DNA from: a virus
Taxonomy: Duplodnaviria > Caudoviricetes
DNA length: 64,000 nucleotides
Strand: one strand, 5' to 3'
IMG/VR virus record: IMGVR_UViG_3300028833_000068
Span: 96,001-160,000 of that record
Shown here: piece by piece, positions 1,853 to 53,147 of the stretch
How positions within the stretch are numbered: position 1 is the first letter of the stretch
Layout of the letters: every line of letters starts with the position of its first letter
Program-made: the position numbers and the translations under genes
The notes under the pieces: model-generated
Told to the model about the DNA's origin: nothing
The model's database searches: none
Seen by the model: only the letters and a program-made list of their open reading frames with translations

Positions 1853-2623
1853 TTAATATTTATTCTGTGAGGCTTTCTTTATCAATTCTTCAATATCCGT
1901 ATAAACTGTATATGGAAAATCTACATTAACATTAGAATAATGAAGTAACGTTACTCCATGTTCTTCGCAAAGTTTGATTTTCAATTCATCATTATTCTTC
2001 TGTAACTCAAAATGTTCCTTTCCGCCAAAATATTCAATTGGTTTAAAATGTTGCAAACCTTGACATTCTATAGCAACATTGTACTTAGGTAAATAGAAAT
2101 CAAATCTTTTAATTTTTTTCCCATCAACTAACCAATCAAAAACCTTTTGTTGTTCATATTCAATACCATTATTAATTAAAGCTTGTTCAACATTTCTCTC
2201 TAACTTAGATATTTTACAGTATGGACATCCTTGTTTGTGAGTTAAATGGTTATGTGGTGTCATTTCAAACTCCCTACCACATTCATTACATTTAATTACT
2301 AACTTAGTTTCTTTGTTTTTGTATACACTTTTAGAATAATCAAATTGCTCTCCGTGTAATGCTTTTGCTCTACTAGTAAAAACCTCTGTCGTTATTTTTT
2401 CTCTATTTGAACATACTCGGCATCCTCTTCCTAATAAGTGTTTTTCTGGAGTTTGCCAAAACTCACCGTGAATTGGGCATATTATGCAAACTTTTGTTCT
2501 AGCATTAACGTACTCAACTTTTGAATAATCATACTTGTCACCATGAATTTTCCTAGCACGTTCGATAAATTCATCCTTTGTAAAAGCAAACTTTTCCCTT
2601 AATATCTCATATTGTTTTTTCAT
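1853..2623 (-). CDS. Free-standing homing endonuclease (HGxKYDYS/Zn-finger repeats plus Vsr-like PD-(D/E)xK domain)
   Basis: KIHGDKYDYSKVEY..ICPIHGEFWQ repeats; C-terminal RFDFYLP..IECQG.QH. Confidence 0.85.
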   Translation of the reverse strand: MKKQYEILREKFAFTKDEFIERARKIHGDKYDYSKVEYVNARTKVCIICPIHGEFWQTPEKHLLGRGCRVCSNREKITTEVFTSRAKALHGEQFDYSKSVYKNKETKLVIKCNECGREFEMTPHNHLTHKQGCPYCKISKLERNVEQALINNGIEYEQQKVFDWLVDGKKIKRFDFYLPKYNVAIECQGLQHFKPIEYFGGKEHFELQKNNDELKIKLCEEHGVTLLHYSNVNVDFPYTVYTDIEELIKKASQNKY

Positions 2624-37382: not shown

Positions 37383-38138
37383 ATGAGTATAATAAATGAA
37401 TGGTCTCCGTTTCCTAAAAATAAGGATTGGAGAAAGAAAGGACAAGAAAAACCAAAGACTACCCCTAATCCAAACCCACATGATGATAAAAAAGGTTGGG
37501 GAACAAAGACTAATAAGGAAAAAGAAGACGATTGGTATCAAAACGAATCTAGAAATATGAATGAAGATAAATGGAAAGATGCATATAGAACATCTGATGG
37601 TAAAATTATACAGTACAGTAGACCATATCAAGGCAGTAAAAATAAAAACTTTAGAACAATAAATGCACCACAACCAAAACCAAGTAATGCATATAATGAT
37701 TTTGACGAAGGATGGAGAGATGAATATGCTGACAAAAATGGTAAAACTATTGCTCAATCAAGGATAAACCCAACAACCAAGAAAAGAGAATTTAGAATCC
37801 CAAAGAATGAGTCTGTTGTACCTAAGAAACTTATAAGATTAACAGAATCAGACCTTCATAGAATCATTAAAGAGTCTGTAAATAGAATTCTTAACGAAGA
37901 TTGGGCTGATGACCTTTGTCAAAAAATGAAAGGCGCACTTGGAACAGTCGGAAATCCATACCCACAAGGAAAATCTGAATTTGCTGTCCCTAGTATGGAT
38001 GAATTAACGCCAGAGGAACTTGAATTTGTGAGCAAAGCTGTAAATGGTATGGGAAGATGGGGTCGTCTTTGCATAGTCAGAGACGCAAGACGTAGTGGCA
38101 TGCCATTGGGAGAATATTTAATTCATAGAAAAGGGTAA
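37383..38138 (+). CDS. Tag-bearing modular protein
   Basis: Internal KKLIRLTESDLHRIIKESVNRILNE; duplicated W.D.Y....GK.I..SR module. Confidence 0.8.
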   Translation: MSIINEWSPFPKNKDWRKKGQEKPKTTPNPNPHDDKKGWGTKTNKEKEDDWYQNESRNMNEDKWKDAYRTSDGKIIQYSRPYQGSKNKNFRTINAPQPKPSNAYNDFDEGWRDEYADKNGKTIAQSRINPTTKKREFRIPKNESVVPKKLIRLTESDLHRIIKESVNRILNEDWADDLCQKMKGALGTVGNPYPQGKSEFAVPSMDELTPEELEFVSKAVNGMGRWGRLCIVRDARRSGMPLGEYLIHRKG

Positions 38139-38163
38139 TCTTAAACGGTTACTCTTTTTTTTT
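38128..38163 (+). terminator. Intrinsic terminator
   Basis: AAAAGGGTAA..TTACTCTTTTTTT. Confidence 0.65.
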
Positions 38164-38170
38164 ATTTTTA

Positions 38171-38202
38171 TTTGCTTTTTTAACTTTTTTTATATATCTT
38201 TG
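38171..38202 (+). promoter_or_regulatory. Bacteroidota sigma-A-type promoter upstream of the polymerase unit
   Basis: TTTG ... TATCTTTG. Confidence 0.75.
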
Positions 38203-38218
38203 CAAAAATTAATTTTTT

Positions 38219-38500
38219 ATGCAGTACAAAATTTTAAGAGGACATAACTTAAAAGAAGGCAGAGGAATGGATTACATTCCAGAGGAAGGAGTCCTATGTT
38301 GGGGAATGGATACCAATGAATTGTTCATTGGAGATGGAAGAACAATGGTTAAAAACCTAAAAGGTATAGGCAACATCTGCAAAGCCCCAAATGGCAGATT
38401 ATACGCTGTAGATGTAGATAACTTTGGGCATGCAACAGTGAAACCATTGATGAGCAAATTAAACGGAATACAAAAAACAGTCGATTTTTACGCAGAATGA
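38219..38500 (+). CDS. Small protein resembling the Mtd/hyaluronidase N-terminal (fibre beta-prism) domain
   Basis: EGVLCWGMDTNELFIGDG motif. Confidence 0.55.
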   Translation: MQYKILRGHNLKEGRGMDYIPEEGVLCWGMDTNELFIGDGRTMVKNLKGIGNICKAPNGRLYAVDVDNFGHATVKPLMSKLNGIQKTVDFYAE

Positions 38501-38590
38501 TTTTTTATAGGAAATATATTAAGAACTGATGACATCTTGGTATGTCTTAAGGTTTAACAAAAATAACAATACCTAACAATTTAAACTTTT

Positions 38591-41020
38591 ATGTTGAAAC
38601 AAATTACAACTGACGTTGTTAACACCTTTCTATTAGGTCATGACCCAATGGAACACATCATTTCCATTGAATGTGGGTTCGATGAAGACAAGGTTAACAT
38701 CATTTACGTAAATGAAAAAGGTGAAAAACGTATTAAGCAAGACGATTTCAAACCATTCATTTGGGTAAAACATAGTGCTGCAATAAGACTATTCAATGGT
38801 AATAGAGCAGAACTTAGAAAACAATTGAGATGGTATGGAATCTCAATTAAAAAACTAATCACCTCCAATGATAACGGAGAAGAACACGAAAGACTAGAAA
38901 GTGGATATAAATACCTCTTTTATGCCACTAGAAAAATGAGCAATCAAGTGTTTCAAAGTTTCTTTTCAAAAGGTGGAGTACCCATCCATCCTAGACAGAA
39001 AAAAGGTGAAACACAAAATGGAAATAAAGAGTTCATGGGAGTTACACCAGTTGAACAATATATGATTGCAACTGGACGAAGACTCTTTAAAGGCTATGAC
39101 ACATACGATGAACTCAACAGATTCATCTTTGACTTGGAAACACAAGGACTCAACCCTAGAATACATAGGATTGAGCAAATTGGTATACACACAAATAAAG
39201 GATACAATAAGGTAATATCTGTCGAAGGCAATTCAAAAGAAGAACTAGATAAAAACGAAATTGCTGCAATCGAAGAGTTTTTGGAAATATTGGCTGACTT
39301 AAAACCAGATACAGTAGTTGGGCATAATTCAGAAAACTTCGACTGGAACTTCTTTATCGTTCGCTGTGAAATGCTTGGGGTAGATTTTTCAGAACTTTCA
39401 CTTAAATACTTTAGACACGCAATATATAAGAAGAAAAAAGAATCTGTACTTAAACTAGGAGGAGAAGTGGAATACTACTATCCAACAATTATGTGGGGAC
39501 ATAATGTTCTAGATTCACTACATGCAGCACGTAGGGCACAAGCCATCGACTCCAATATGAAATCTTCAAACTTGAAATATGTTACCAAATATCTTAATCT
39601 GAAGAAACAAAATCGTGTGTATGTACCAGGTGATAAAATCACCACAACTTGGAACATCCAAGAAAAAGTATTTGGACTATGTGAAGATGATGGAGATTGG
39701 TATAGAGTAACAGATAAAAGACCATTACTTAAAGGATATAATCTAGTAAGTGGCAGATATATAGTTGAAAGATATTTGTTAGATGACTTATGGGAGACTG
39801 ATAAGGTAGAAGATAAACTAAACGAGTCTAACTTCCTTGTGGGTAAGATGTTACCAACCAACTTCTCAAGAACTTGTACAATGGGTACGGCTGGCATTTG
39901 GAAGCTCATCATGCTTGCGTGGTGCTATGAAAATGACCTTGCAATACCATCAGCAGCACCAAATAAACGCTTTACTGGTGGACTTTCACGTCTCCTTAAG
40001 ACTGGATTCGTTGACCGTATTGTAAAACTTGACTATAACTCACTTTATCCTTCAGTAATCCTTACATGGCATGTTTCAACACCAATTGACGTTATGAATG
40101 TCATGCTTTCATTCCTTGAATATATCCTCACGCAACGAGAAAAATACAAGGAACTTAAGGCAGAAGCTGGAGATAACGTTGATAAGTTTAAGGAACTTCT
40201 TGAAAAGGCAGAAGGAGAAGAATTAAAGAAGATAGAAGAACAGATAAAGTATTGGAAAGCAGAGAAGAGTGGTAACGATAAGAAACAGTTGCCTCTTAAG
40301 ATTCTTGCTAATAGCTTCTTCGGAGGATACGGCTCTCCAAATGTATTCCCATTTGGAGACATCCTTGCAGCAGAAAAGACAACTTGCATCAGTCGTATGT
40401 CACTGAGACTTATGATTTCTCACTTCAAGTCAATTGGTTATGAACCAATCGTAGGTGATTCGTTTACGGCAGATACTCCTTTATTCATTAAGTATGATAT
40501 AGATGGAAAAATTGATATTAAACCAATATGTGAATTAATTGGCAAGACAGAAACAGATGCTTTAGGCAGAGAATATGATACTTCTGAAAAACCATATAAA
40601 GTTCTTTGTAGAAGCGGTTGGATGAGACCTAAGTACATATACCGTCACAAGACAAATAAGCCGTTATACGAGATTTCTGAGGGTAATATGAGTGTTACAG
40701 TAACAGAAGACCACAGCTTGTTTAATGATAAACAGCAGAAGATTAAACCAAGTGAAATAAACCAAAACACAAGATTAGAATATTATAAGGATAAGTTTTG
40801 GCATGGTGAAGGTTCTCATAAGGTTCATGGCAGTGTCATTACCTCTACAGCACGTATGCTTAAGAGAGGCGCACTAGACAGAGTACCAATGTTCTTATTC
40901 AATGATGTTAGCTTGGATTATATTAGGATGTTTCTTAATGAACTAGAAGGATGGGATTATTCTAATACAAGCAAGACTTGTCAAGCTGGAATAATGTTTT
41001 TAAAGAATAAAATAAAATGA
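38591..41020 (+). CDS. polB: DNA polymerase family B, N-terminal part, fused to split intein N-fragment
   Basis: ExoI FDLET, ExoII GHNSENFD, ExoIII YLLDD, motif A LDYNSLYPS, motif B KILANSFFG, then IVGD|SFTADTP. Confidence 0.95.
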   Translation: MLKQITTDVVNTFLLGHDPMEHIISIECGFDEDKVNIIYVNEKGEKRIKQDDFKPFIWVKHSAAIRLFNGNRAELRKQLRWYGISIKKLITSNDNGEEHERLESGYKYLFYATRKMSNQVFQSFFSKGGVPIHPRQKKGETQNGNKEFMGVTPVEQYMIATGRRLFKGYDTYDELNRFIFDLETQGLNPRIHRIEQIGIHTNKGYNKVISVEGNSKEELDKNEIAAIEEFLEILADLKPDTVVGHNSENFDWNFFIVRCEMLGVDFSELSLKYFRHAIYKKKKESVLKLGGEVEYYYPTIMWGHNVLDSLHAARRAQAIDSNMKSSNLKYVTKYLNLKKQNRVYVPGDKITTTWNIQEKVFGLCEDDGDWYRVTDKRPLLKGYNLVSGRYIVERYLLDDLWETDKVEDKLNESNFLVGKMLPTNFSRTCTMGTAGIWKLIMLAWCYENDLAIPSAAPNKRFTGGLSRLLKTGFVDRIVKLDYNSLYPSVILTWHVSTPIDVMNVMLSFLEYILTQREKYKELKAEAGDNVDKFKELLEKAEGEELKKIEEQIKYWKAEKSGNDKKQLPLKILANSFFGGYGSPNVFPFGDILAAEKTTCISRMSLRLMISHFKSIGYEPIVGDSFTADTPLFIKYDIDGKIDIKPICELIGKTETDALGREYDTSEKPYKVLCRSGWMRPKYIYRHKTNKPLYEISEGNMSVTVTEDHSLFNDKQQKIKPSEINQNTRLEYYKDKFWHGEGSHKVHGSVITSTARMLKRGALDRVPMFLFNDVSLDYIRMFLNELEGWDYSNTSKTCQAGIMFLKNKIK
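40460..41017 (+). mobile_element. Split intein N-fragment (186 aa, Ser1)
   Basis: Block A SFTADTPLFI, block B VTVTEDHSLF. Confidence 0.9.
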
Positions 41021-41904
41021 ATAATACAGAAACTTTTATAAAAAAAGCAATTAAAATACATGGAAACAAATATGACTATTCCAAAGTAAATTACATAAAT
41101 GCGCATACAAAAATATGTATAGTTTGTCCAATTCATAGTGATTTCTGGATAAGACCAAATAATCACTTGAATGGACAAGGGTGTTCATATTGTGGTGGAA
41201 CTAGAAAAGATGATACATAAACATTTATTGAAAAAGCAAGAAAAATTCATGGAGATAAATATGATTACTCAAAGGTAGAATATAAAAATAACAAAACCAA
41301 AATATGTATTACTTGTCCAACTCATGGGGATTTCTGGATGAAACCAAATGACCATCTAAATCATCATGGATGTCCAACTTGTGGAGGAACTAAAAAAATT
41401 AGGCAAAATGAAATAATTAATAAATTTAAAGAAGTTCATGGGAATAAATATGATTATTCAAAAGTAGAATATGTTAATGCGCATGCCAAAGTTTGTATTA
41501 TTTGTCCTAAACACGGAGAGTTTTGGCAACCTCCGCATGACCATTTAAAAGGTTGTGGATGCCCAACTTGTAATGAAAGCGCATTAGAAAAACATTTATT
41601 TGATTTTTTAACTGATAGGAATATTTCATTTAAGTCCCAGAAAAAATTTAATTGGTTGGGAAAACAACGTTTAGATTTTTATATTCCAAAGTATAATATC
41701 GCAATAGAATGCCAAGGAATACAACACTTTGAAAATAGAGATTTCTTTGAACCATTAGAAATTATACAAGAAAGAGACAAACTAAAGAAACAACTTTGTG
41801 AAGAACACGGTATTAAAGTGTTGTACTATAGCAACGTAGGTATAGAATACCCGTATCAAGTTTTTGAAAATAAAGAAGAACTTTTAAAAGAAATAATAAA
41901 ATGA
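41017..41904 (+). pseudogene. Homing endonuclease between the polymerase halves, interrupted by one in-frame TAA (41218-41220)
   Basis: KDDT*TFIEKARKIHGDKYDYS reads in frame into ORF 41338; three repeats plus RLDFYIP..IECQG. Confidence 0.85.
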
Positions 41905-42014
41905 ATAGTATTAACGTAAAAAAAATGGAGGACTGCCAAGGCATCGGTGTTGTGTACGACATATCTCTGGACGGAACTGTGGTTAACGCCCTAGGAATGA
42001 ACGTAATAAGCAAC
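41901..42014 (+). mobile_element. Split intein C-fragment (38 aa, ends Ser-Asn, +1 Thr)
   Basis: Block F VYDISLDG, block G VISN/T. Confidence 0.9.
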
Positions 42015-43478
42015 ACCGATGGCTTCAACTTCCAAATGCCAAAGGAAGAAGATTTCCGCTATACAAAAGAACACCCATACGTCAGCACTGGCGAAGGACG
42101 TAACTCAGTTAAAGGTAAAGAATATACACGAGTCGATGCCGACGTTGCTGAGTTCGAAGACTTGTTCTTGTCCAAACCTTATAACGGCGGCATCAACAAA
42201 ATGGGGTTAGGCATAGACGAGTACTGCGATGCTTGCATCCAATTCGCACGTAAGAACTATGCCGATTTGATGCCAGACGGTAAGACAAAGAAAGTTGGTA
42301 ACACAATTAAGTCTCGTAAGATGAGTGGTTATCTTGAGAAATTTATTGATGAAGGTGTTGACTTATTATTAAGGAACAATGGCTATAAGTTCTTATCGAA
42401 TTATTATGATTACATCGACAAGATTTATAACTATCAGATTCCAATTAAGGATATTGCTTCAAAGGGCAACATCAAGAAGACATTGAAGGAATACACTGCT
42501 GATTGTGGAACACTTACAAAGGCTGGTTCAAAGAAATCACGTCAAGCTTGGTATGAACTTGCAATCAATGAAAACCTTAATGTAAACGTTGGTGACACTG
42601 TATTCTATATCAACACTGGTACAAAGAAAGGTCATACTGATGTAAAGCGTGTTACGCATTACTATTATTATCTTAATGGTGAAAAGACAGAAATCACCAA
42701 GGAAGTTGAAAAACTATACAAGGATAATACAAAGGAAGTTAAACTTAATGGTGGTGAAAAGAAATCTCGCATTGAACTAGCAAAGGAAAAGTATGGCAGT
42801 AAGGCATTTGATGAGGATGAAATCATCCTTAACTGTAAGTTAGTACCAAATGAAATCCTTGATAAGGAAGAGGATGTGCTTTGCAGCGAATATGAAGGTC
42901 TTGAATACAATGTGGAGAAATACATTGAGCAATTCAATAAGAGAATCACCCCATTGTTGGTTTGTTTCCATCCAGATATAAGAAATCAAATTCTTATAAC
43001 CAATCCAAAGGATAAGAAATTCTTTACTGAGGAGCAATCTAAACTTGTAAGCGGTTATCCAAATAAGGAAGGAGACCAAGACACATATGAGGCATTGATG
43101 ACACCAGAGAGAAAAGAAATTGAATTTTGGCTTAAGATTAATGAAGTTCCGCCATTTGTTAAAGAATGCGGAATTGATTGGGATGGTCTTGTAGAGAAAT
43201 ACAAAAAAGAGGTTGAGGAAGAGAACAATGCATTATTCCAAGAGGAAAATCAGAAGTATCTCGAAATCCTTGAAGAGATTACCAATGATGAGGTTGAGGA
43301 ATTTGAATCAGAAGGAAAAATACCAACAGCATTGGCATCAATTGTAACACTGAATGCAGCAGACATGAGGTTCTACTTCAAGAAAATGCCAGATAGAACG
43401 CCATCTACTGGTGGATTTGTCTTTGATGACATCCAATATAACTATGCTGAAACAGTAGATGCATTAGGAGACTTCTAA
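41901..43478 (+). CDS. polB: DNA polymerase family B, C-terminal part, preceded by split intein C-fragment
   Basis: VYDISL..VISN|TDGFNF completes motif C; ARKNYA, KKVG. Confidence 0.92.
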   Translation: MNSINVKKMEDCQGIGVVYDISLDGTVVNALGMNVISNTDGFNFQMPKEEDFRYTKEHPYVSTGEGRNSVKGKEYTRVDADVAEFEDLFLSKPYNGGINKMGLGIDEYCDACIQFARKNYADLMPDGKTKKVGNTIKSRKMSGYLEKFIDEGVDLLLRNNGYKFLSNYYDYIDKIYNYQIPIKDIASKGNIKKTLKEYTADCGTLTKAGSKKSRQAWYELAINENLNVNVGDTVFYINTGTKKGHTDVKRVTHYYYYLNGEKTEITKEVEKLYKDNTKEVKLNGGEKKSRIELAKEKYGSKAFDEDEIILNCKLVPNEILDKEEDVLCSEYEGLEYNVEKYIEQFNKRITPLLVCFHPDIRNQILITNPKDKKFFTEEQSKLVSGYPNKEGDQDTYEALMTPERKEIEFWLKINEVPPFVKECGIDWDGLVEKYKKEVEEENNALFQEENQKYLEILEEITNDEVEEFESEGKIPTALASIVTLNAADMRFYFKKMPDRTPSTGGFVFDDIQYNYAETVDALGDF

Positions 43479-43484
43479 AAAAAG

Positions 43485-43518
43485 AAAAAGAACTAAGTTT
43501 ATTGCTTAGTTCTTTTTT
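43485..43518. terminator. Bidirectional terminator
   Basis: AAAAAGAACTAAG..CTTAGTTCTTTTTT. Confidence 0.75.
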
Positions 43519-43789
43519 GTTTTCTTTCAATATATTCTAACTGTCTTAGTTTATTATCAATTGTTGTTTCAAATTCAATCATTTGGTTTCTAATAAACAC
43601 TGTGATACCAAAGAATGCAAGTGCAACGCCAAGCATTGTCGTTCCAGCTGTTATAACTGGATACCCAATTGATAGCGTTACTATAAATGCTATGAAGTAT
43701 AGTATGACTGCCGCAAATACTAATACAGTACCATTGATGATTTGCATTTTATCCCTAATTCCTATGTCTCTCCAACCTTCTCTTCTCAT
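43499..43789 (-). CDS. Two-TM membrane protein, holin candidate
   Basis: Two hydrophobic helices and a charged C-tail; late unit. Confidence 0.55.
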   Translation of the reverse strand: MRREGWRDIGIRDKMQIINGTVLVFAAVILYFIAFIVTLSIGYPVITAGTTMLGVALAFFGITVFIRNQMIEFETTIDNKLRQLEYIERKQKRTKQ

Positions 43790-43806
43790 GCTTCTTGTTT
43801 TAGTAA

Positions 43807-45630
43807 TTATTTCTTATTCCAGCGTTTGGCGTTTTGAGCAAATACAGCCCTTTTACGAGTAAGTGGATTCTTTGAATGTGTTAGTTCTTCAGTAGATTTT
43901 CCAGTTGCCTTTTTGGTGGCATTAAACTTTCCTTTATTCTTTGGGTCAATCTCAATTGACTCTTCAACTTCATCCTTTATACCCAAACGTCTTCTAGCTT
44001 CTGCTCTTTCTTCTGGCGCAACTTGTTTCTTAAAACCCTTTCTGTGACCATGCGTTGACCTAATGAAACCCTTAGTGTTGGCTTGCTTTTGGGTATATTC
44101 CTTTATAATATTTATTGCAGCTTCCTTAACAACTTGTTTAAGCTCTTGTTCTGTGACTTTTATTGGCTTCTTGGATTCATCAATCCCATCACCTTCTTTC
44201 ATGCCTAGTTTTTTAAACATTTTCATTAAATATGGCTCTAACTTAGATGGCATTTTTGATGCTGGGCCGTATGTCTCTTCATATGGAAGCCAAGTACCGT
44301 CATTATAAAGTTCGACATCCCATTCACCATTATTCTGTACCTCTTTATAACTGTCTAGTAATGCCCAGTATGCACGACAATCAGCCATATCTAACACAGC
44401 AACCAATTGTCCATCACCATATTTCATTCTAGAAACTTTACGTCTAGTTTTTTCGGCTTCTCTACGTCTTTTAGCATCTTCCTTTCTCCTTAAAGCTGAA
44501 GATTCTTTTGCTTTAGTTTTTGCCTCTATTTTATCTTGCTCTGCTTTTTTTGATGCTAGGTCACTATATGTGTTTTGCCAGTTATCACTGTCTTTTACCC
44601 CATGATTAGGAAAATCAGTATCTGTTTGCTGTTTAAACCATTTATTCCTTTCATAAAAATCACCCATTGGGATTTGAGAATAATCAATCTCATTGATAAT
44701 CTGCATTGCAGCTTCCTTAATAACTTGTTTAAGTTCAGATTCGGTTAACTTAACTTGTTTATTTATTTCTTTATCTTCAATCACTCGATTATTCTTAGGC
44801 CATAACACAATGCAAGTATCATAACGAGAAAATGGGTCTTCAACAGTTCCACAAGCCATGCACTTGATATAACCACTAATCTTCATTCCATCATCGAACA
44901 TGATATTAATTGCATATTGCTTTGAACGTGGCATACCATCTTCAGCATAATCACAATAACCGCCATCTGATTCCATGCTGTCAGCATTTTCTATATGACC
45001 ACAAGGTTTCATTTCAACCTCACAACCCAATGAAGATATTGCTCTATAATAATCTGATATCGCTTGCCAATTCTCATCATGATAAACTCTAGAATCAATA
45101 CCATATTTCTTTACAATTCTATATATTTGATTGATTCTTGCTTGAATTGACTTTGGCTTTCTGCCCATAAACTTATCAACCTCATCGTGTCTTCCCAAGT
45201 TTTTTGGCATAGACTCTGTTAACTTCTCTCTAAGCCTATTTTTAAGCTCTTCCTTGAGCGTGAAGTTAACAAGGTATAACTTTCTCTGCATATCACCAAT
45301 AAAACTCTCACATTCGCTCTTAATGCCTATATAATTCTCACCCATCCCTTCAAGTTCCTTTAAGAAATCCTTGGAATCTGAGATGACATCTTCAACAAAT
45401 GCTTTCAAAGTGGTTTCATTAGCTTCTTCTGGAGTTAATGCATTCAACTTAATCTTTCCACTGATGGACTGTTCAACCTCAGACACCAAATCCTCAAAAT
45501 CAGAGATAGAACTTGCAATGTCATCACAAAGCTCATGTTGTGACATATTATCAGCACTCCAATGGAAATTCTTAATTTCTACCTTCCACTTCTCGCATTT
45601 ATTTATAAAACTTAATATTTTCTTATTCAT
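43807..45630 (-). CDS. Modular protein: ferritin/Dps-like (DUF5856-like) N-domain, two internal tags, basic C-terminal module
   Basis: IKNFHW..QHELCD..FEDLVSE..KLYL; VKLTESELKQVIKE and IKVTEQELKQVVKE; ATATTTATA at 45651-45659. Confidence 0.75.
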   Translation of the reverse strand: MNKKILSFINKCEKWKVEIKNFHWSADNMSQHELCDDIASSISDFEDLVSEVEQSISGKIKLNALTPEEANETTLKAFVEDVISDSKDFLKELEGMGENYIGIKSECESFIGDMQRKLYLVNFTLKEELKNRLREKLTESMPKNLGRHDEVDKFMGRKPKSIQARINQIYRIVKKYGIDSRVYHDENWQAISDYYRAISSLGCEVEMKPCGHIENADSMESDGGYCDYAEDGMPRSKQYAINIMFDDGMKISGYIKCMACGTVEDPFSRYDTCIVLWPKNNRVIEDKEINKQVKLTESELKQVIKEAAMQIINEIDYSQIPMGDFYERNKWFKQQTDTDFPNHGVKDSDNWQNTYSDLASKKAEQDKIEAKTKAKESSALRRKEDAKRRREAEKTRRKVSRMKYGDGQLVAVLDMADCRAYWALLDSYKEVQNNGEWDVELYNDGTWLPYEETYGPASKMPSKLEPYLMKMFKKLGMKEGDGIDESKKPIKVTEQELKQVVKEAAINIIKEYTQKQANTKGFIRSTHGHRKGFKKQVAPEERAEARRRLGIKDEVEESIEIDPKNKGKFNATKKATGKSTEELTHSKNPLTRKRAVFAQNAKRWNKK

Positions 45631-45712: not shown

Positions 45713-46095
45713 ATGAATAATGGAAAACGATTAACAAATCAAGAAGCATTAGAAAGAATACAAGAAAATATGTTCATGATTGCAGAAGTAAAATATTACC
45801 TTGGTTAAAACATAAGATTTCAATGTCTTTAGATTTCTATCTACCAGAATACAAAATAGCAATTGAATGCCAAGGAAGACAGCACTTCGAACCAGTTCTT
45901 GACTTCGGAGGGAATAAAGCATTCGAAGAAAGCCTAGAAAGAGATAGAAGAAAACTGTTGTTATGTAAGGAACACGGAGTCAAATTATTATACTATGACA
46001 GCGAACGTGGGCATACAGAATTTTTAGGAGAAAAAGTTTACAATGAAGAAAATAAAATATTAAAAGAAATAACTAGTTATGGAGAAAAAAATTAA
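45713..46095 (+). pseudogene. Internally deleted, frameshifted homing endonuclease
   Basis: MNNGKRLTNQEALERIQE in one frame; KYVHDCRSKILPWLKHKISMSLDFYLPEYKIAIECQG in another. Confidence 0.7.
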
Positions 46096-52226: not shown

Positions 52227-53147
52227 ATGGTAACAGAGCAATTTATTGAACGAGCCAAAAAAGTTCATGGCGATAAATACGATTATTCAAAGGTAGAATA
52301 TAAAAACAACCATACAAAAGTTTGTATAATCTGTCCTATTCATGGCGAATTCTGGATGACCCCAAATAATCATTTACAAGGACACGGATGTAAACCTTGT
52401 GGGTATAATAAAAATGCAGAAAATCAAACATTGTCATTAGAACAATTCATAGAAAAAGCTAAAAAGATTCATGGGGAAAAATATGATTATTCAAAAGTAA
52501 AATATTTTGGTATGCACACAAGGATTTGTATTATCTGTCCTAAACACGGTGAATTTTGGCAACTTCCGTATGACCATTTACAAGGAAAGGGGTGTAAAAA
52601 ATGTGGGTATGAAAGTAATTGTTTAACTAATGAACAATTCATAGAAAAAGCTAAAAAAATTCATGGAGAAAAATATGATTATTCGAAAATAATTTATAAA
52701 GATAATAATACGCCTGTTTGTATTATATGTAAAGAACACGGTGAATTCTGGCAAACACCTCATACGCATTTAAAAGGTTACGGTTGTAATAAATGTAGTG
52801 AAACTACATTAGAAAATAAATGTAGACTACTGTTAGAAAAAAACCACATTGAATATATTTCTCAAAAAAAATTTGATTGGCTGGGTAACCAAAGATTAGA
52901 TTTTTATTTGCCAAATCATAATATTGGAATAGAATGTCAAGGTGAACAACATTACAGGCCAATAGAATTTTTTGGTGGTTTAAAAACATTTAATAAAATA
53001 AAAAATAATGATATAAAAAAAAGCAATAAATGTAAAGAAAATAAAATTAAATTAATATATTTTTCTGAAGAAAGGCACAATAGTTTTAATGGTGTTAAAA
53101 GTTATTACGATAATAACATTCTAAAAGAATTAATTAGTTATGATTGA
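52227..53147 (+). CDS. Free-standing homing endonuclease (three repeats plus Vsr-like domain), intact
   Basis: Three FIE.AKK.HG.KYDYSK..C..HGEFW repeats; RLDFYLP..IECQGEQH; ATATTTATA at 52181. Confidence 0.85.
   Translation: MVTEQFIERAKKVHGDKYDYSKVEYKNNHTKVCIICPIHGEFWMTPNNHLQGHGCKPCGYNKNAENQTLSLEQFIEKAKKIHGEKYDYSKVKYFGMHTRICIICPKHGEFWQLPYDHLQGKGCKKCGYESNCLTNEQFIEKAKKIHGEKYDYSKIIYKDNNTPVCIICKEHGEFWQTPHTHLKGYGCNKCSETTLENKCRLLLEKNHIEYISQKKFDWLGNQRLDFYLPNHNIGIECQGEQHYRPIEFFGGLKTFNKIKNNDIKKSNKCKENKIKLIYFSEERHNSFNGVKSYYDNNILKELISYD

Follow-up and report, generated by a model that had tools for sequence, protein, structure and literature searches.

The pol-c site of family B DNA polymerases (PolB) lies between the first Asp and the Thr of motif C (YGD|TDS) and hosts archaeal PolB inteins, a Mimivirus intein of the Ser1...Asn|Thr+1 type, and the natural split of the PolB from Nanoarchaeum equitans (Neq) (PMC549080). 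In the fractured genes of Dassa et al. (2009), as presented in the portions of that report considered here, the halves of a split intein flank a free-standing homing endonuclease of the GIY-YIG or Vsr-like type (PMC2677866). Cysteine-less natural split PolB inteins from T4-like phages, namely Aes123 PolB1, CP21, LCGC14, and GOM-OPS-1, have been tested biochemically (PMC11923092, PMC12707363), and a study of the 360- to 402-kb gut "Jug" phages states, without an analysis of inteins, that endonuclease sequences often interrupt their DNA polymerase genes (PMC12880540). Here we describe a PolB locus at positions 38591 to 43478 of a 64,000-nucleotide stretch of phage DNA (the window; positions 96,001 to 160,000 of IMG/VR record IMGVR_UViG_3300028833_000068, Caudoviricetes). 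This polymerase, the only recognizable one of a giant rumen-type phage, is divided at motif C into two genes, which carry at their facing ends the halves (IntN and IntC) of a natural split intein that is real and probably functional, with an endonuclease reading frame between them. This arrangement has already been described in kind, both as a fractured gene and as a cysteine-less split PolB intein, and the present locus is a further example.

All three reading frames lie on the + strand. Gene 1 (38591 to 41020, 809 amino acids [aa]) encodes a 623-aa PolB N-extein (38591 to 40459) that ends in IVGD and contains the exonuclease domain, motifs A and B, and the first Asp of motif C, with matches to Pfam DNA_pol_B_exo1 and DNA_pol_B and to PHROG 262 ("DNA polymerase"). 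It continues into IntN, which is composed of a core (residues 1 to 110, 40460 to 40789) and a helical tail (residues 111 to 186 plus the TGA, 40790 to 41020). Gene 2 (41901 to 43478, 525 aa) opens with a 38-aa IntC (41901 to 42014) that carries block F (VYDISLDG) and block G (...VISN), followed by a 487-aa C-extein (42015 to 43478) that begins at T+1 with TDGFNF and comprises the remainder of motif C and then the thumb. Gene 2 gave no meaningful Pfam or PHROG match, and the PDB sequence search was also empty. The endonuclease reading frame of 296 codons (41017 to 41904) is joined to both genes by ATGA stop/start overlaps at 41017 to 41020 and 41901 to 41904, which link the three frames. Gene 1, the endonuclease frame, and gene 2 occupy frames 2, 1, and 3, respectively. 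Stop-codon reassignment was rejected as the cause of this layout, given that the frames differ, that table 11 leaves the long open reading frames (ORFs) uninterrupted, and that the standard code is in use in related gut jumbo phages (PMC12880540).

The extein boundaries were obtained by aligning both genes with four intein-free homologues of 1102 to 1112 aa, all of which read ...SIGYEPIVGD-TDGFNFQMP... without interruption. Gene 1 departs from them directly after D623 (codon 40457 to 40459), so that the intein begins with S1 (40460 to 40462), and gene 2 rejoins them at its residue 39, the T+1 codon being 42015 to 42017. This alignment fixes both boundaries to the residue and gives 623 + 487 = 1110 aa for the joined enzyme. 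A first-pass annotation made from the letters of the window had proposed a 623-aa extein with a 186-aa IntN in gene 1, a 38-aa IntC with an SN|TDGFNF junction at the start of gene 2, and a motif C rebuilt as IVGD-TDG in a 1110-aa enzyme if the two are joined; the boundaries proved exact, and the intein-free relatives read precisely as the rebuilt motif does.

The same division recurs widely. Among 5.8 billion proteins searched, about 90 homologues of gene 1 have about 810 aa and align over its full length with 67 to 93% identity, and about 90 share the D|S junction, while another 29 homologues of about 1100 to 1130 aa match only the first 77% of the gene. In the 120 gene-2 matches listed, 66 start with an IntC ending in SN|TDGFNF, 2 start within the N-extein, and 1 is the end of a contiguous (cis) intein. 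The recurrence of the junction in the homologues of both genes is far beyond chance. A megablast of the locus against GenBank phages returned zero matches, and the best tblastn hits were PolBs of Salinibacter and Nostoc phages with only about 25% identity, so the locus has no cultured close relative.

The identity of the intein is indicated by its sequence relatives, its modeled fold, and its catalytic residues. IntN alone has no match in Pfam; in a PDB sequence search it matches the Aes123 PolB1 split intein (9hth) and TFIIB mini-inteins, and a profile of 14 IntN sequences retrieves 9hth with an E value of 4.6e-5. The AlphaFold (AF2) model, which covers IntN by itself without IntC, has a pLDDT of 82.6 and places a beta-rich domain at residues 1 to 104. 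This domain aligns with the inteins Pho PolII (5bkh, Z 8.8), PI-PfuI (1dq3, Z 7.8), PolB16 OarG (8cpo, Z 7.0), and Aes (Z 5.6) and with the Neq split intein (5oxx, Z 5.6). In Foldseek, inteins fill the top eight rows, none of them reaching an E value of 0.001. The model thus predicts a HINT fold for IntN.

The catalytic set is conserved both among close and among distant relatives. S1, block B (T82-E-D-H85, the TxxH motif), and the R62-H63 pair are invariant in 91 N-halves of close relatives. The latter is the NX motif, in which a His follows Arg or Lys; it is a signature of Ser1 inteins and critical for splicing (Pasch et al., PMC10189870), and its partner Glu (E38) is also present here. The window further contains the block-F Asp (F:4, in VYD), the terminal Asn (G:7), and Thr+1, and all 66 IntC-bearing gene-2 homologues listed retain SN|T and ...YDISLDG...SN. 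When the 1.84 billion representatives of clusters formed at 50% identity were searched with an IntN profile, 1459 clusters matched at E <= 1e-3, and residue conservation was scored in 100 representatives from the best 150. All 90 of them that are aligned at the first position have S1, while Arg or Lys at position 62 is present in 94 of the 100, H63 and T82 in 98 each, and H85 in every one; 11 divergent split N-fragments retain all of these residues, except for one Tyr that replaces H63. From these residues the two halves are predicted to form a class-1 Ser1/Thr+1 intein that uses oxyesters. The annotated natively split intein at motif C of PolB is therefore backed by the boundaries, the residue set, and the modeled HINT fold, and its Ser1, Thr+1, and penultimate Ser were all recovered in the window and in the homologue sequences.

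We consider it highly likely that this is a two-gene PolB joined by class-1 trans-splicing, with an intein of LAGLIDADG ancestry and a history of splitting by an endonuclease; the association of the halves and the chemistry are what we infer. The two translationally coupled genes would yield an N-extein-IntN protein and an IntC-C-extein protein, whose intein parts would associate into one HINT fold. Splicing via oxyesters would begin with an N-O shift at Ser1, helped by the NX His63 and by Thr82 and His85 of block B, after which transesterification would pass the N-extein to Thr+1 and the terminal Asn would cyclize. Motif C (..VGD-TDG..) would be intact in the predicted product, a polymerase of 1110 aa that contains the junction peptide SIGYEPIVGDTDGFNFQMPK.

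Several points weigh against trans-splicing. Ser occupies the penultimate position (G:6) in the window, as it does in almost every split relative, whereas the cis relatives have His there; the penultimate His expected of a class-1 intein is thus absent from the window, which may slow Asn cyclization. Position 13 of block F is not His either, and IntN is 186 aa long compared with 88 to 123 aa in characterized natural split inteins. In vitro, splicing is poor for many natural split inteins (PMC11923092). As an objection to splicing, the penultimate Ser carries little weight. It also occurs in the DnaE split inteins, which end in ...ASN. Inteins lacking the penultimate His can splice, the residue not being universal among active inteins (PMC4031507). 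Two relatives show rare variants at this junction: the IntC of locus L032 (5953 to 6063) ends in ..VLKQ|TDG, with a C-terminal Gln in place of Asn, which is a known intein variant (PMC4031507), and that of locus L021 (5953 to 6063) ends in ..NFCN|TDG, with a penultimate Cys.

The loss of the penultimate His would also suit a polymerase that runs as two chains, with the intein halves acting as a noncovalent clasp that does not splice. There are precedents for intein-free two-chain phage enzymes split by a homing endonuclease gene, namely Aeh1 NrdA and phage 25 gp43, which are cited in the consulted portions of PMC2677866. A clasp, however, has no need of Ser1, the NX His, TxxH, the block-F Asp, the terminal Asn, or Thr+1, and the retention of this full set in lineages with less than 50% identity is the main argument against it. 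In addition, if the intein stayed in place, some 224 aa would separate the catalytic Asp pair of motif C (GD|TD) and would be expected to block the active site. We regard the clasp as very unlikely.

The insertion site places the intein in a known allele class. The intein-free homologue P0078 (..PIVGDTDGFNF..) aligns with archaeal PolB (..YADTDG..), which identifies the D|T split as the pol-c position YGD|TDS. The occupants of this site use Ser1 and Thr+1, and so hydroxyl nucleophiles are normal for this allele. The intein shares the motif-C site, Ser1, the terminal Asn, Thr+1, and an apparent LAGLIDADG ancestry with the pol-c inteins PI-TkoII, Psp Pol-1, and Mimivirus, and it shares with Neq PolB (NEQ068/NEQ528) the natural split at this site and a structural match (5oxx). 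It differs from all of these in its host, a bacterial jumbo phage, in its 186-aa IntN with a LAGLIDADG stump, and in its penultimate Ser. Its two genes are neighbors separated by the endonuclease gene, in contrast to the unlinked genes of Neq. The Neq IntN has about 98 aa.

Aes123 PolB1 (9HTH) is likewise naturally split and cysteine-independent, with Ser1, Ser/Thr+1, the NX His, and a location in motif C of a phage PolB, and it is the closest solved structure by sequence, the similarity at the E value given above being only remote. Its site (DTD|SVY) lies two residues downstream of the window site (PMC11923092), and IntN of this type has 115 to 120 aa instead of 186. The window intein would work like the Aes123 PolB1 type but is a different allele. 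Given the norm at pol-c, the characterized phage PolB examples, and the abundance of the family in metagenomes, the suggestion in the first-pass annotation that non-Cys junctions are rare and that the allele may be new was overstated.

Selection on the intein was assessed from the ratio of nonsynonymous to synonymous substitution rates (dN/dS), which is reported only for pairs without synonymous saturation. Between the window and its relatives, dN/dS is 0.03 to 0.10 for the IntN core (four estimable pairs) and 0.04 to 0.14 for IntC (two estimable pairs), compared with 0.09 to 0.17 for the flanking exteins; the IntN tail is less constrained (0.15 to 0.64). In the saturated pairs nonsynonymous change is still far below synonymous change. 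Both intein halves are under purifying selection, with a dN/dS as low as that of the polymerase itself.

These values oppose the notion of a polymerase pseudogene in decay or of an assembly artifact. The window record, which has a single PolB locus, is fragmentary (171 kb, with an estimated completeness of 53%), and the endonuclease frame contains a nonsense codon, both of which favor that notion. Both polymerase ORFs, on the other hand, are intact and 85 to 89% identical to intein-free relatives, and the same architecture occurs in many independent contigs, including complete genomes of 393 to 410 kb with no other polymerase, so that decay or misassembly has hardly any probability left. In each of five complete relatives (393 to 413 kb) a single PolB locus is present and polymerases of families A and C are absent, and two of the five have the split form, from which it follows that the split enzyme must work. 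The expectation that replication depends on the split polymerase is thereby supported indirectly, through the single PolB of these relatives.

Joining at the RNA level, where the intervening DNA would be an intron with an endonuclease ORF, finds some support in related gut jumbo phages, where small group I introns are numerous and split genes for polymerases occur (PMC12880540). No Rfam family was found across positions 38000 to 44000 at E <= 1, which gives no support for an intron. The segment that an intron would remove encodes IntN and IntC, which show purifying selection at the protein level as well as intein homology and fold, and the ATGA overlaps suit the coupled translation of three ORFs rather than an intron. 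RNA-level joining is therefore extremely improbable.

The unusual length of IntN is explained by the retention of a decayed LAGLIDADG stump in its tail. Residues 111 to 186 form four helices in the AlphaFold model. A 355-aa cis intein present in relatives aligns with the IntN core (hhalign E 1.3e-23), and its second LAGLIDADG module (residues 227 to 281) aligns with tail residues 140 to 184 (hhalign E 1.8e-5); the region of the cis intein homologous to the tail matches Pfam LAGLIDADG_3. The LAGLIDADG inteins PI-TkoII (2cw8) and Tli VMA (7qsu) align structurally across residues 1 to 186 (Z 6.2). A LAGLIDADG enzyme has two such helices with catalytic acidic residues, whereas only the second module is recognizable in the tail, and its catalytic GDG loop is deleted. 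Judged by these alignments, the tail is a remnant of a LAGLIDADG domain and not an enzyme.

The tail is present in every split relative, where IntN has 183 to 196 aa, and always stops just past the SKTxxAGxxFLK helix, even in lineages with less than 50% identity. This universal presence and constant end point suggest one ancient split within a decayed endonuclease domain. The 75-aa stump is retained down to about 45% identity, also where the endonuclease gene has disappeared from the genome. The stump could be a working module, either a solubility or capture domain for IntC or a DNA-binding partner in trans of the free-standing nuclease, although we hold this to be rather unlikely. If true, natural split inteins with a stump that works in one of these ways would form a "long-IntN" class of their own.

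The reading frame between the halves contains three treble-clef zinc modules of 63 codons each, encoded by 189-nucleotide tandem repeats, followed by a nuclease domain. It is interrupted by a TAA at 41218 to 41220, after codon 67 and between the first and second zinc modules, so that the ORFs called in this frame are 41017 to 41220 (67 aa) and 41338 to 41904 (188 aa). The frame matches Pfam DUF559 (21.2 bits against a cutoff of 20.6) as well as PHROG homing endonuclease families, and its D...IECQG.QH motif is invariant. Sequence searches of the PDB, both single and profile, gave nothing useful for the endonuclease. The AF2 model of the 188-aa ORF (pLDDT 85) matches Escherichia coli Vsr (1cw0, Foldseek E 4.3e-5) and I-Bth0305I (3r3p, E 2.8e-3, probability 1.00). 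This fold match makes the label "Vsr-like" of the first-pass annotation correct, the in-frame TAA being absent from that account, and the gene is predicted to encode a homing endonuclease of the Vsr/I-Bth0305I kind. It shares the nuclease fold and a mobile-element context with I-Bth0305I and other Vsr-like (EDxHD) endonucleases (3R3P; PMC3239194) but is free-standing between intein halves instead of intron encoded, carries three N-terminal treble-clef modules, and has the TAA in the window copy.

The frame is unbroken in most relatives (308 to 634 codons). The endonuclease of the window is probably either decaying or made only from an internal ATG at 41338, and the TAA suggests that loss of the endonuclease is at an early stage here. 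Two intact paralogues with zinc modules and a Vsr-like nuclease lie elsewhere in the window, at 1853 to 2623 (- strand) and 52227 to 53147 (+ strand), and a truncated remnant of the same family lies at 45823 to 46095 (+ strand); the phage thus carries several free-standing endonuclease copies. A 29-nucleotide direct repeat, 83% identical between its copies (40998 to 41026 and 41882 to 41910), straddles both ends of the endonuclease, one copy covering the end of IntN and the start of the nuclease and the other the end of the nuclease and the start of IntC. It could be a trace of cassette insertion, a substrate for deletion, or a chance occurrence in AT-rich DNA.

The gene order, the overlapping ORFs, the Vsr-like family, the phage setting, and the existence of endonuclease-less relatives are shared with the fractured genes of Dassa et al., as far as the consulted portions of that paper describe them. 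As there, two ORFs carry the intein halves with an endonuclease between them, which in the window has an in-frame TAA. The N-parts given in those portions have 88 to 105 aa and no endonuclease remnant, whereas the window intein clearly had its own LAGLIDADG domain at one time. Here, moreover, close relatives differ in whether they carry the cis, the empty, or the split allele, and the window endonuclease contains a stop codon. No PolB host was found in the consulted portions of PMC2677866, where the words "family B" are confined to a reference and the polymerase passages concern DnaE, with Neq and gp43 as background.

The alleles of the relatives were examined in 34 fetched IMG/VR loci on contigs of up to 413 kb. 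Among the 33 that could be typed, 10 have an empty site, 8 a cis intein, 12 the split form with the endonuclease, and 3 (L022, L026, and L027) the split form without it; in the remaining locus, L034, the endonuclease and IntC were seen, and the N-extein and IntN were not found within the stretch fetched. The cis intein of eight relatives, at the same site, is contiguous and in frame from S1 to CHN|T, with two LAGLIDADG motifs and matches to Pfam Intein_splicing and LAGLIDADG_3. IntC is 71 to 76% identical to its C-terminal end. In a quick extein tree, from which two loci with short N-exteins were excluded and which recombination near the site may blur, the intein states are interspersed (14 changes, compared with an average of 16.8 after shuffling), and the smallest well-supported clade that holds the window contains six rows, with three cis, two split, and one empty. 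The interspersed states fit ongoing gain, loss, and replacement by homing.

The ancestor would have been a contiguous LAGLIDADG intein at the pol-c site, whose own nuclease domain decayed to the stump. In line with the "fractured gene" model, a free-standing Vsr-like endonuclease gene would then have entered the position of the old endonuclease, which divided the intein in two. The pattern fits the gene-breaking model of Dassa et al., with the resident LAGLIDADG domain as an extra earlier stage. Synonymous divergence between the window and locus L033 is a mosaic, being about 0.57 to 0.81 in the exteins and IntN core and 0.26 to 0.36 in the IntN tail and IntC, which suggests that a cassette of tail, endonuclease, and IntC was swapped more recently than its flanks.

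Further features were observed around the junction and in the C-extein. A predicted RNA hairpin (41938 to 42025, + strand) has 15-nucleotide arms at 41938 to 41952 and 42011 to 42025 that form an inverted repeat with 93% complementarity (-39 kcal/mol, z -3.2). Its 3' arm spans the splice-junction codons AAC ACC GAT GGC and coincides with the spot where relatives that share the IntC type have a stop-containing gap in the C-extein, directly after SN|TDG (L033:6109-6140, L004:2245-2275, L008:6109-6140, L023:6103-6135, L026:6100-6130, L045, and L049). This gap is absent from the window (42012 to 42035). It takes the forms GGC TAG CTA GGT and GGC TGA ATA GGC or GGT (9 nucleotides); in two independent contigs an 8-nucleotide form is found, GGC TGA AT GGT or GGC, after which the conserved extein resumes in a shifted frame without a start codon. 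This succession of a Gly codon, a stop, 2 to 3 nucleotides, and a second Gly codon resembles a short ribosome hop, and 47 of the 120 gene-2 homologues listed start just past this spot. In the database proteins P0133, P0141, and P0147 the sequence is ..SN TDG Q L GFNF.., and Gln thus stands at the place of the TAG in the IMG/VR loci, which reflects either a real CAG allele, a 3-aa insertion then being tolerated, or gene calling with TAG as Gln.

A second interruption of the C-extein, after about residue 75, occurs in L026 (6344 to 6593) and L032 (6288 to 6617). It is 250 to 330 nucleotides long with changes of frame, the two inserts align poorly with each other, and a search of both against Rfam gave no match; these inserts could be small introns or elements of some other kind. 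A terminator-like hairpin lies 3' of the C-extein at 43484 to 43518.

Few cysteine-less split inteins splice efficiently (PMC12707363), which is why protein engineers seek them, and the present locus adds a candidate mesophilic, cysteine-independent, naturally split pol-c intein to this short list. Close jumbo-phage relatives hold the empty site, the cis LAGLIDADG intein, the split form with the endonuclease, and the split form without it, a rare set of coexisting stages. These stages illustrate the published gene-breaking model together with an extra step, in which a decayed resident endonuclease would have been replaced by a free-standing one. For the annotation of these phages, what appears as "two polymerase fragments plus hypothetical proteins" would be one polymerase.

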